From NCBI GenBank assembly GCA_951406725.2, contig OX597819.1:22568001-22632000 (forward strand): a stretch of 64,000 nucleotides of DNA, read 5' to 3'. How positions within the stretch are numbered: position 1 is the stretch's first letter; each line of letters begins with the position of its first letter. The position numbers were made by a program, and so were the translations under genes. The notes below the pieces were generated by a model. The model had not been told where the DNA came from. It did no database searches and saw only the letters and a list, made by a program, of their open reading frames with translations. Source of the DNA: Octopus vulgaris (lineage: Eukaryota). Of this stretch, positions 45,751 through 53,990 are shown piece by piece.

Positions 45751-47384
45751 TATGTTAGAGTATGTTTAGTTGTGGTCTGTATTTTTGAATAAGATTATTT
45801 TCCCTATTTATTCGTGTTTGGTCTGTGGTGTTGTCCGGGCATTGGTATAGTGGGAAAACTAAGAATTTTGGGGACTTATTGTGTGCACAGAGGTCTAAGT
45901 GTCCACTTAGTGGTATCTGTCTTGTGGAGGGGTCCCTCAGTTGTTGGCGGTGAACTGTCATTCTTTCTTTGAGGGTAAGGCTCGTTTGCCCTATGTAGTC
46001 TTCTACCATATGACGTAGAGTAATTTTTTTGATGCGCACGTGAAATTATTTTTTATGATGAATGTGTATCCCGACTGGAACTTGTATGTCGATCCCTCAA
46101 TGAGGTGGATGCAAGTCCTGCAGTTGGGACGACCACATTTTTTGACGGTGGGCGGTGGGTTTGTGTTGTGTAATTTTGCGTTGGTGAGGAGGTTTTTTAG
46201 GGATTTAGGCTGTCTCTTACTTTTTATCATTTTATGAGCTGCCGGTAATTTTTTTAGGCGTGGGTCTTGATTTAGCTGTGGAATGTTGTTGTATATAATA
46301 GTGTAAGCTTCTGCATTTCTTGGGTTGTGAGTTGAGAGGTAGGTCAGGCTATTTACTGTACTGTAGATGTGTTTTGGTTTTCGTAAGTCTTGAGTGTTAA
46401 TTGAGTTGGCCCGTTCTATTCCGTTGTCCACTAGTGATGTCGGTTAATGTCTTTCGAGAATAATTGCCCTTAGTTCCCGGAGTCTTCTATTTCGTGTTGT
46501 GTCATTTGAGACAATTGTGCAGATTCTTCTCGCAAAGTTGAAGGGGATATATGTCTTTGTGTGTTTTGGGTGATTGGAGGTGAATAGAAGGTATTGTTTA
46601 GAGTCAGTGGGTTTGTAATGGATATCAGTTTCAATGTTGACGCCTTTTTTAATGATTAGAATGTCAAGAATAGGAAGTTGGTCCTGACTATATTCCATTG
46701 TGAATTGAATGGGGTTATTTACACTGTTGATAAGATTTTTGAAGTCAATAAGTTGATCAAGTGTGTGGGACCATAGGATGAGGCAATCATCTAAGTAGCG
46801 TTTCCAGTTCTCCAACAGGTATTTGTGGAAAGACTGGCCGTACTTATATTTGGATTTTTCATAAATATCTGACTCCAGGTAGGCCATCACCAGGTTTGCA
46901 TAGGTAGGGGCAACTTTCGTACCCATTGCAGTTCCTGAAACCTGTCTGTAAGTGTTATTATTGAAATTCATGAAGTTATTTTGCAGAATAAATTTGAGGC
47001 CCTCAATGATGAATTCTTTTTATTATTTATTCCGGGATCTCATTGGGATATTTATCCAGCCAGAATTTAATGGCTTCCAGTCCATATTCATGTGGGATCG
47101 TGGTGTAAAGGTTTATTACATCAAAGGAAACGATTAAAGTGTCTTTATCGGTAAAGTAAATAAACATTTTTTAAATAGCATTTTCAAACCTTCTTTCGTA
47201 TATAAATATATATATATATTTATATAATTTTTTCAGAATGAGCTAAAAATCCAAGGTCTTACAGCTGTTTCCAGGATATATAACGTTGGGCTTTTATCAG
47301 CCTCCGCCTACAAAAATCCACTTATAAGGATTTTGTCGGCCCGAGGCTATAAGTAGCAGACACATGTGGTTGGGAAGCAAGCTT

Positions 47385-50300
47385 CTTTATTTCATAAACT
47401 GGCTATGGAAGCCGTATATAGATGGGACAAACAATGACAGACAAACATAGAAGGTGAAGAAGTTGCTTATTACGAATGAAATAGTTTCGAATGATAAAAT
47501 ATAAATGTCATGTTGTTAAAAAGTATATCTTACTACACTTTTAAAAATTCCAATATAAGCTTGATGACTGAAGGAAAGGCATCCAACCGCCAGGTTCGAA
47601 CCTCTACTTTTCCTTCTGGCCCAACTTACCTGGTTCCAATCACTCGAAGCTTGTTCACTACTTGCTTCCATCTTTTCGCGAATATATCTGTGACAGATAT
47701 CTCTTCTCCAGCCTGATCTTGATAACGAGGTGCTAATTAAAGAAGTTAACCAAGCCCTGGCTGGAGACGAAGGTACCTGTCATCAAACCTTTTACATGCG
47801 TCTTCCATATTGTTTCTTTCAGTATGGCTTCTATGCAAAAAACAACAAGCCTTCCTTTCCCTGTTAAGAGAAGGAGGTGTCACAATCTTGATAAGAGACT
47901 CAGCCGATAGCTGTACTCTTCCCATCGTTGACAACATATGCTCGACAAATTTATCTGTCACGATAATTCCGGACACTCCACGAAGGCGTGCAAGTTAGTT
48001 AGTTTCTCTGTCCCGCCCGCACCTCGGGCATGTCGGCGAGACGACACCTCGGTGCCTTGACAGCTGGTCTCGCACAGGCAAAGGCAAATGATAGTACTGT
48101 CAAGCCAGAGATTTCTGTTAATTATCCAGATATTCCAGCCCAAAAGATCTCCTGAACATGTTGATCAACTGATTTTCATCGAAGCCCAGGGTCTCCTCCT
48201 GGACATCGTCTGACATAAATTCCACTAACCCGCTATAGAAATCCGCAGTGGAACACTTGCTGCCGGTATTGCTCATCCAAGTTGCCAGTCCCCCAGCTTA
48301 GGTATTCGTTTGATCTATGGACCAATGTCCATTAAGGATGTCAACTGTGGAAGGTAGAACCTTACGTGCGGTAACCACACCTGTTCTCCATCCAGGTAAA
48401 GCCAGAGGTGCCTCAACCTTAACGCAAATTTTCGCATCCACAGCCAGGCATCCCTAGCACACCTTTTAGCGGTTTTTGGTAGTAGACAAAGCGCTTCACA
48501 AATGGCTTTCCTCCCTTCCACAAAAAAACGGAAGAGGATTCTTTCCAACTTATTCAGCCACGAATCAGGGCAAAGCACAACGGTTAGGCGGTAGGTGATG
48601 ACATGCTATGAACATCTGCCTGGAATAGCGCAAGTTTGTGCCTTCCCGACAAGTCTGTCCACAACACGCACCAACCTTTTTGCTAACACCTTGGCCAAAG
48701 TCTTTAACTCTGTGTTTAACAGAGCTATGGGCCGAAAATTACATATGATATCCCCCGTGCTCGGGTCCTTTCTGATCAATGTCACCACCCCCAGCTCACA
48801 GATCTGAGAATTCTACCATTCTGCTGCCAGTTGGCGTAGACGCTGGTCAGTGGGTGCCCAAACAAGTCTGGCATACCTTTGTAAAACTCATAGGGCAGAC
48901 CCGGCGATTTGTCCCCGGAGCACTCGGATAGCGCCTTGATCACCTCCGAGGCTGTAATCGGCCCCGACAGCACTCAGCTTCTCGTGGCAAGAGACGCAGA
49001 CCACCAGCCAGGAAGTCCCGTAAGGTCTCACCATGGTCTAGCGTCCCACTCCTCCCGAACAACTCGGCGAAGTGCATGTAAAATGCATCACACATCTCCT
49101 ATCCTTTGACCAAACGTCCATCTTCGCCTATCAAAGTCTTGATTATGGCCACCCGGCAACATTAATTCCCTCGCGGCCCAATTGCACGTACTTTAGCCCG
49201 AAACCTGCATCCCTCATGTTTGGTTTTGAGGTGACGGTCCAATGCCGTTCTCGCTGCCAAAATTTGGGATACAGAGCCAAATGTCAACGCCGATTCTAAA
49301 GCCTTAAGGAGATTCCCTTCTATCTTAGCCTTATCTAAACTTAACTGACGGCTAAATCTAACAGACTCAAAACGTATGGCTATTTTTCGGTCAAACCACC
49401 GCCGGTTATTCACCTCGGTGCCGGTTAATGCTCTTTTCACTACCTCCTTAATCCGTCACGGTATGTCTCACAAGCCAAATTAGACTTATTCAGCTTCTAG
49501 TAGCCGGATCCCTGCCTATAGGCATTATGTTCAGCCTACACAGTGGACAGCTAAACCTAGACTTATTTAATCCTTATAACTATCCTGTCTATGTAAAACT
49601 TGTGCTTCCCATCGCCATTCATCCAGGTCCACACTGCTACGCTCGAGTTCTCAAGTTTGTAACGACCTACCATTGTCTAGAATGGTTCTTGTGCATAGGA
49701 TATAACATTGTGGTGTGGCGCTATCATATCCTTAGTGCATTGTATTTGTCCTTTGAGTCGAACTCGACCAAAATTCGTCTTTCGACTGTTTTTTTTCTGG
49801 GACGGTTGGGTGGGTTTTTTTTAATATTTGAATTGTATTTTCCGATTTTGTGGGGGATGTGGACGGGGATTGTGTCAACGTTCTTTTGGTCGGGCCTCGA
49901 ACAACAGTGTACTCCTCTTGGACTGTCTCCATAGTGTGTGTATGGGTTTGGGAGCAGTTTTTTTGTTGTTTTGGTTTGTGAGGGTTAGGTGTATGTTTCT
50001 TCACAGGAGTTTGGGCCTTTACATTCTCTTCCTTTTTTCGCGTCGCAATCAACACTCATGTGGCCTTTTCGGCCACATTTAAAGCATCTGGGTCTTTTTG
50101 CCCTCCACATGAATTTTGAGAGCTATGTCCTCGCCCACAAGCACTCCGTCGGAAATCCTTTCTATGTCTCCTGGTGCCGATTGAATGATGGCTACAATGC
50201 TCTGCCCGAGCCAATTTTGGGAGCAGAGCGTGTTACTTGTAGGATATTAATTTTATCTTCCCTGTGAAACAACAGGACGGTCTCATCCACGCGGCATCAA

Positions 50301-52494: not shown

Positions 52495-52507
52495 GGAAGC
52501 AAGCCTT

Positions 52508-53990
52508 CTTTATTTTATGAAATCGGACACGAAGGCCTTACACAGAGGGGACAGCACAAGGTAGAGACAAAAAAAAAGAAAAAAAACAGAACGAACGAAA
52601 AGAATGAATTAACATAATGAAATATTAAATGAAGCCGTTCGGTTCCACCTCTGAACGACTTCACTGAACCTGTTAATACAACACTTTTTGAAACACAATT
52701 ATTTACACCAGTTAATCACCATATTTTCTTTATTTTTTTCAGAATGTCTATGTCATATTTCTTTTGATATCGACATACCTTATCCGTTCCGGCATTATGC
52801 TGGTGTCTAGTTTTTTGACCAACCACTCGCTGTCACAATTTTCCACACACATATTTTCCTTAGAGAGCTGCGGTGAGTAAGTTTGAGGCTTCTGTGTGTT
52901 TGCACTTGTTTTTATGTCAGACAGGGCATGGAAGGGGGGGGGGGAATTTCCGTACGGAGTGGTTGGGGTAACTGGTGTGTGTGGGGGCCGAGTGGGTGTA
53001 GGCTTGGGGGGGGGGGTCATCCTTCACCATGTGTGTCCTCTTTCTTTCTCTTTTTTCCGCCATTTCCCAGCTGGTGTTTGCCTCCTCTTCCTCGACGCTG
53101 GTACTTGTCTTCGTCTGTGATGCCACATCACTTCCTTTTCCCTCCACTGGTTGTGGAACACCAACCCCTTTCTCACTCACCTGTCTCTCCTTAGACTTTT
53201 CTAGTGGTGGACAACAATCCACTCTAATGTGGCCTTTCAGACCACATTTATAACACCGCGGAATCCTCCCTTCCACTCTAACTTTCAACGTTGTCTCTCC
53301 GACTGTGATGGTCCCGAACATCCCTTCATAATTCTACTCCGCAACCAGCACAACCACATCAAGAGCCCGTCCTAGCCAGTTTCCATGGAGTGCTCTGGTG
53401 GCCCGGAGGACCACCACCCTATTATCAGTGCCCAGCAGTACGGCAGCCATCAGCCAAGCCACATCCACCTCAGATGGGCACCTCCTCTACCCGAAACCCG
53501 GAAGTACGCTTCCAAAGGTATATGAGTAGAAGAACCACTTCATCCGCTCTCAGCGGTCTCACTGAGTGCAGCCCGGCGGCAGCTACCCGTCCGTCTCCGA
53601 ACTGCACCTCCACCGCTCCAAACCTCTTTCCTCCGGCAAGACAGAAAGCCAGATTGGTCCCACTTCCCCTCCCACCTGAACCACCGACACAATCACGATC
53701 CTTCGGGCCACCACTGAGCATGTTCACCAAATTACAGTCTCCTCCACTGCGTCTCCTACAACCTCTTTGGGGCGGAGCACCTTCACCTCGCTCTCCTCCC
53801 CCAAGCATTCCCCTGAACTTGCTCACACCCTCCAGCCCCATGTCCTCGCTCCTTTCTTTCGTCGCAGCATCTCAACTCCCTACCTCCATTGCTTTGTCCA
53901 TCATCCCCAAACACTCCACCATCCCGCCCCGCAGACGACACAAAGTCCGGAGAAGGGCATTCCACAACGTCAGAAACAGAACAACTCAAT
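52508..53990 (-). mobile_element. Tx1/L1-type element C, ORF1 only
   Basis: RCYKCGLKGHIRVDC knuckle. The 3' UTR is shared with element B. Confidence 0.82.

Follow-up and report, generated by a model that had tools for sequence, protein, structure and literature searches.

How do several different retrotransposons come to lie head to tail at one place in a genome, with a copy of the same short sequence between each and the next? The question is raised by a 64,000-nt stretch of Octopus vulgaris DNA from contig OX597819.1 (the window), in which three L1/Tx1-type elements (E1, E2 and E3) follow one another on the minus strand from 53990 to 47388. Between them stand copies of a 15-bp segment from the head of a short interspersed nuclear element (SINE), and the last copy runs on as CAACCAC into the SINE body. 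We consider it likely, with a probability of roughly 0.8, that three different elements are stacked at one position of the SINE head because the endonuclease of their family is predicted to nick there, and each insertion would duplicate the site. Targeting of this position, with the site regenerated at every insertion, had been proposed in a first-pass annotation of the window, and both the anatomy of the junctions and the same flanks in paralogous copies argue for it at the level of sequence.

Junctions in the window and in paralogous copies

All four junctions named in the first-pass annotation are present on the minus strand. Its 12-base motif is exact at 47373-47384 (AAGCTTGCTTCC), has two mismatches at 50812-50823 and one inserted G at 52495-52507, and recurs with two mismatches at 28306-28317, after a SINE head. 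There, as had also been stated, the head leads up to the same motif before a fourth element, E4, which carries open reading frame 1 (ORF1). AATAAAG precedes every array junction, E2, E3 and E4 start with GG directly after the motif, and the first 108 bases of E2 and E3 are 79.6% alike. The last array junction passes into the SINE body as described, with a loss of ~40 bases after CAACCAC. In the alignment of 3' junctions with empty sites, 15 bases are identical, namely AAG plus the 12-mer. The repeated motif is thus real and shared, but 15 bp long rather than 12, and the insertion point lies in the region of the SINE head that had been indicated but up to 3 bases to the left of the marked position. 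For the same reason, the AAG at the end of AATAAAG is either target DNA or indistinguishable from the A-rich tail. In the window as well as in paralogs, 5' junctions end and 3' junctions begin with the same 15-mer, a target-site duplication of fixed length. The decay of the array junctions (0, 2 and 1 changes) is insufficient to order the insertions.

Since E1 and E2 are adjacent and homologous (67%), one insertion into a SINE might later have been amplified together with it, as a single composite, or local tandem duplication might have produced the array. This is very improbable, because a paralog of E2 elsewhere (X2 record 12), 85% alike, is closer to it than its neighbour, the body of E3 is different, and E4, 25% alike in protein, begins at the same base. 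Altogether, four diverged families (25-67% alike) are inserted at that base.

The target is a short, interspersed, high-copy repeat, whose loose ends occur in 120-258 contigs per public DNA run at single places, and of which the window holds four empty and three partial copies in 64 kb. The empty sites are at 6883-6897, 38425-38439, 37032-37046 and 57357-57371. In the reference copy the target is flanked by the A-box-like and B-box-like motifs, so the RNA polymerase III (Pol III) promoter of the SINE would be interrupted by an insertion; the box patterns each match the head with one mismatch, a weak likeness that 62 of 5000 random windows equal. The SINE is probably one of the octopus families OK, OR1 or OR2, with a Pol III-type head. 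Given a site within a head of this kind, and Tx1 families known to target U2, U5 and 5S genes (PMC4494074), it is conceivable that a cellular tRNA gene or another multicopy RNA gene, the source of the SINE head, is the primary target and that SINE copies are by-catch. We think this improbable, since every flank read matches the SINE itself past the site, and since neither ARAGORN (0 genes) nor Rfam calls a tRNA in the head, which is therefore far from any working tRNA gene. At all four filled junctions the target starts with AAGAA, whereas the four empty copies have AAGTA, AAGTA, AAGGA and AAAAG. This contrast, drawn from only two independent filled SINEs, is a hint, and it is possible that empty sites without AAGAA are escape variants. 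A metagenome scan for the site returned 0 loci.

Paralogous copies outside the window were sought in contigs of public DNA runs aligned at 80% likeness, and their flanks were compared by eye from consensus rows; one of the runs, X4, has another species label and may or may not represent another species. Across the E1/E2 junction stretch (52370-52660; 146 contigs in X1 and 252 in X4), where a SINE flank must show as a loose end, 12 of the 169 loose-end rows were listed. All four listed rows at or near the junction (agreement 0.67-0.74) read the target, and the other eight reflect divergence within the elements or the end of the stretch. On the 3' side, at least five X1 and at least six X4 contigs run on past E1-type 3' ends into the SINE body and contain bases that the copy in the window has lost, and at least seven further X1 contigs terminate in an A-run plus GAAGCT. 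On the 5' side, E2-type 5' ends are preceded by the SINE head in at least six X4 contigs, with 17 of 18 bases matching the copy at 6.9 kb. In a comparison with the whole array, a ~90%-alike paralog of the E3 3' end crosses the target into the SINE in three of four runs (X1, X2 and X4). E1-type and E2-type 3' ends also join the SINE site (joints 47392-52532, 47395-52519 and 47394-50833), and in one X1 contig an E3-type 5' end is linked to the site at 47373, which is compatible with another stack.

These flanks bear on the two findings that the first-pass annotation had named as fatal to its proposal, namely that the motif is the elements' own terminus or that flanks are random. Because paralogs have the SINE head before their 5' ends and the SINE body after their 3' ends, the motif is target DNA and not an element end; nor are the flanks random among the listed rows. 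That the motif is instead a SINE piece captured as the elements' own end would agree with its following AATAAAG in all three array elements. However, in the window and in paralogs alike, the SINE head runs into the motif at 5' junctions and the motif runs into the SINE body at 3' junctions, and a further relative, E5, has the tail without the motif. Capture has next to no probability left, and the paralog flanks already largely refute it.

Targeted stacking has several observations to answer for. No single element in the window retains both SINE flanks, only four of the eight element junctions carry the site, and every copy in the window is dead. At 53990, the 5' end of the array directly adjoins TACACCCGTTT, where another repeat ends, and a SINE head looked for upstream of E1 was not found there; likewise, no SINE body follows the 3' end of E4 at about 26480. 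Later deletions must be assumed for both missing flanks. In addition, non-SINE flanks may occur among the loose-end rows beyond the 12 listed, and E5, which has the array-type tail, sits elsewhere, in Penelope-like DNA, so that the common tail does not fix the target. The other site of E5 and the four junctions without the motif could be taken to mean that there is no real specificity, but a relaxed L1-type preference for purine runs combined with SINE abundance; the bottom-strand nick predicted below, TTCTT/AC, indeed resembles the L1 endonuclease consensus. Yet although purine runs abound in this AT-rich genome, only 23 sites within two edits of the 12-mer occur in the 128,000 strand positions scanned, four of them coinciding with element junctions, and the junction rows listed for the paralogs read the SINE target without exception. 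A lack of specificity therefore seems quite unlikely, though slightly less so than tandem duplication.

Table 1. Elements, target copies and SINE parts in the window
Feature	Positions	Strand	Remarks
E1	52511..53990	-	ORF1-only, decayed; not preceded by a SINE head
Target copy between E1 and E2	52495..52510	-	15-mer with one inserted G
E2	50827..52494	-	ORF1-only element
Target copy between E2 and E3	50812..50826	-	two mismatches
E3	47388..50811	-	ORF1 and broken ORF2
Target copy after E3	47373..47387	-	exact AAGAAGCTTGCTTCC
SINE body continuing from target	47276..47372	-	~40 bases deleted after CAACCAC
SINE head ending in target 15-mer (28306-28320), directly before E4	28306..28344	-	
E4	26480..28305	-	distant ORF1-only element; 25% ORF1 identity with E2 over 110 aa
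E5	60590..62256	-	ORF1-only relative, 35% to E2 over 118 aa; same 3' tail, outside SINE
Empty full-length target SINE, reference copy	6520..6920	-	A-box-like 6899-6909, target 6883-6897, B-box-like 6857-6865

The elements and their classification

The locus had been described as an array of Tx1-type elements, and it does hold three elements of the L1/Tx1 type; E1 and E2, however, are ORF1-only, and ORF2 is present only in E3. E1 and E2 are 67% alike over 783 bases of ORF1 and 75% over the 3' tail, and the 5' end of E1 is ~100 bases shorter. The ORF1-only E1 and E2 share their 3' tail with the ORF2-bearing E3, and also with E5. An ORF2 match was sought in E1, E2, E4 and E5, and none was obtained. 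In several copies, going by paralogous tails and ORF1 stretches, the 3' tail follows ORF1 directly, without ORF2, as in the half-L1 (HAL1) layout.

The broken ORF2 of E3 (47688-49673) has many stops and frameshifts. Compared with its closest fuller relative, P0002, it lacks residues 342-573 (the core of the reverse transcriptase (RT), about 230 aa), and compared with P0001 it lacks the endonuclease front. The best named match of its RT fragment is a protein of Argonauta hians (67% identical), which points to an octopod host. The ORF2 relatives of E3 carry an apurinic endonuclease-like domain (APE, PF03372), RT (PF00078) and zf-RVT (PF13966). The pieces of E3 map along P0001 and P0002, in the ORF2 layout of the L1/Tx1 group, although E3 itself is broken, and the best PDB match of another relative, P0005, is L1 ORF2p (E=5e-68; next kind 8e-21).

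In ORF1, zf-CCHC was matched in two of the six pieces searched, both just under the Pfam cut-off (for the E1 zinc knuckle, in the 52917-53333 piece, E=6.5e-4), and the top Atlas matches (0.91-0.92) are CCHC clusters. Neither Transposase_22 nor RRM was detected by Pfam in the six pieces; two of them gave nothing and a third only chance-level matches. The ORF1 is thus of the CCHC type, the type looked for in Tx1: in the accessible text of PMC5203782, CCHC-type ORF1s of non-mammalian animals are associated with Tx1.

In a quick tree of 40 proteins, built without a named Tx1, the closest relatives of E3 form a clade of 16 with a support of 100 in the SH-like approximate likelihood ratio test (SH-aLRT). 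This clade is nested in an open group (88) that also takes in proteins of lancelet, coral and fish and is separate from fish LIN1 and plant L1; E3 itself lies outside the tree and was placed by similarity only. A cluster look-up gave a name for one of ten proteins, and a further look-up yielded no Tx1 name. The elements are likely to be of the Tx1 type.

The common tail was also compared with the SINE and with the target. A tail shared between the SINE and the elements is unsupported (4 to 265 of 300 shuffles reach the score in ten comparisons; best for E1 versus the copy at 6.9 kb, 4/300), as is similarity or complementarity of tail and target (59 to 486 of 500 shuffles in ten tests). RNAalifold predicted no pairs in four tails, and a 4-bp GGC(C/T) stem spotted there by eye is unsupported. 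The tail similarity of E5 is reached by 0 of 300 shuffles with E1 or E2 and by 14 of 300 with E3. A candidate 16-bp duplication flanks E5 (62257-62272 and 60574-60589, 13 of 16 matching), which 16 of 3000 control windows equal; longer trims are weaker (36 and 199 of 3000). E5 is possibly a sister lineage with another target. A hammerhead-like motif lies after E5, near 60530-60560. What we take to be Penelope-like RT and GIY-YIG pieces adjoin the array's SINE at 46003-47019 (-) and E5 at 62842-63342 (+).

Possible mechanism and relation to known systems

In target-primed reverse transcription, the target is mainly determined by the endonuclease (PMC4494074, PMC1919474; accessible text). Applied to this locus, an intact relative of E3 would nick the bottom strand at top-strand GGT^AAGAAG, a position uncertain by up to 3 bases because the tail is A-rich, and would copy the RNA from its AAUAAA end. 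A top-strand cut after ...CTTCC would then yield a 13-15 bp duplication, so that the new element is bordered by a site at both ends. The next insertion must have re-used either the left copy (head plus site) or the right copy (site plus body), so that recognition would need the site and at most one flank, not both. ORF1-only elements would be carried in trans via the shared tail. A bolder version, which is less likely than not, holds that an octopod Tx1-type endonuclease has come to read the SINE head itself and to cut between the A and B boxes. The lineage would then multiply in the most abundant repeat of the genome while disabling it, bring ORF1-only passengers along and push the SINE towards escape variants. 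If this were true, it would amount to an arms race of a long interspersed nuclear element (LINE) on a SINE, the reverse of the usual parasitism.

Transposon-targeting Tx1 families are described in the accessible text of PMC4494074: Xenopus Tx1L in the piggyBac element Tx1D, and the crocodilian Tx1-Mar in Mariner-N4_AMi, Tx1-9_AMi in Harbingers, and Tx1-8_Crp and Tx1-4_AMi in long terminal repeat (LTR) elements. The same source lists U2, U5 and 5S genes and microsatellites as further targets, describes tandem non-autonomous passengers, and calls a Tx1 target-specific when more than 20% of flanks lie in one sequence type. The octopus elements resemble these families as APE-RT non-LTR elements with a preferred insertion point in a different mobile element of high abundance, and, as with SINEU, passengers share the target, often in tandem. 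They differ from these families in having a SINE head as target, passengers that encode ORF1 and an octopod host. The use of one fixed base in a multicopy small-RNA-like sequence also recalls Keno in U2 and the U5 and 5S families (PMC4494074), but the target here, going by the flanks read, is a mobile repeat and not a working RNA gene. Similarly, HAL1 is known as a non-autonomous derivative of L1 that encodes only ORF1p (PMC5753468, accessible text); in contrast to HAL1, which derives from mammalian L1, the octopus elements show a site preference, and their ORF1 is of the CCHC type.

No SINE target is named for Tx1 families in the accessible part of PMC4494074, and no SINE-targeting Tx1 was found in the accessible literature (including PMC3747384 and PMC8869645), a search outside which lay supplements, Repbase and Kojima and Fujiwara 2004. 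The octopus SINEs OK, OR1 and OR2 are attributed to Ohshima and Okada 1994 in PMC4758252, PMC4824008 and PMC3531059, and PMC8967140 reports an expansion of L1-Tx1 in coleoids, while its accessible text names no target. The array is real and in the main agrees with the first-pass annotation. What appears new relative to known Tx1 targeting is the SINE as target together with ORF1-only passengers, and an existing Repbase entry is possible.

A mobile, abundant target that is split into subfamilies offers a natural series on how an APE endonuclease gains or changes specificity, to which E5 adds a closely related element at a different site. In the usual situation SINEs are the parasites of LINEs; here, a SINE apparently serves as the landing pad of a LINE lineage. 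For the annotation of cephalopod genomes, nested stacks of this kind would fragment SINE and LINE calls.

Other repeats in the window

Two small-RNA copies in the window are fused to the SINE. A full-length U6 small nuclear RNA copy (Rfam 104 bits) at 14302-14407 (-) is joined within ~7 bases to a SINE head at 14272-14295 (-); this head stops at GTGGTAAG, at most 3 bases from the predicted nick, and an inverted 3' part of the SINE then follows. The junction looks like a chimeric retrocopy made by template switching, by analogy with the known U6-L1 chimeras. The second such fusion within 64 kb is a full-length 5S rRNA copy (Rfam 84.6 bits) at 6929-7047 (-), ~10 bases before the full-length SINE at 6520-6920 (-). 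Self-comparison also reveals long and almost perfect palindromes, with as much as 97% over 440 bases (59348-59764, 59819-60260, 13542-13863, 56313-56617 and 25901-26347), which are foldback elements or resemble miniature inverted-repeat transposable elements. Finally, two LINE copies with long open frames, which we take to be RTE/R4-like, lie at 32094-36150 (+) and 18069-21625 (+); the frames of the first span 731 aa and 349 aa.

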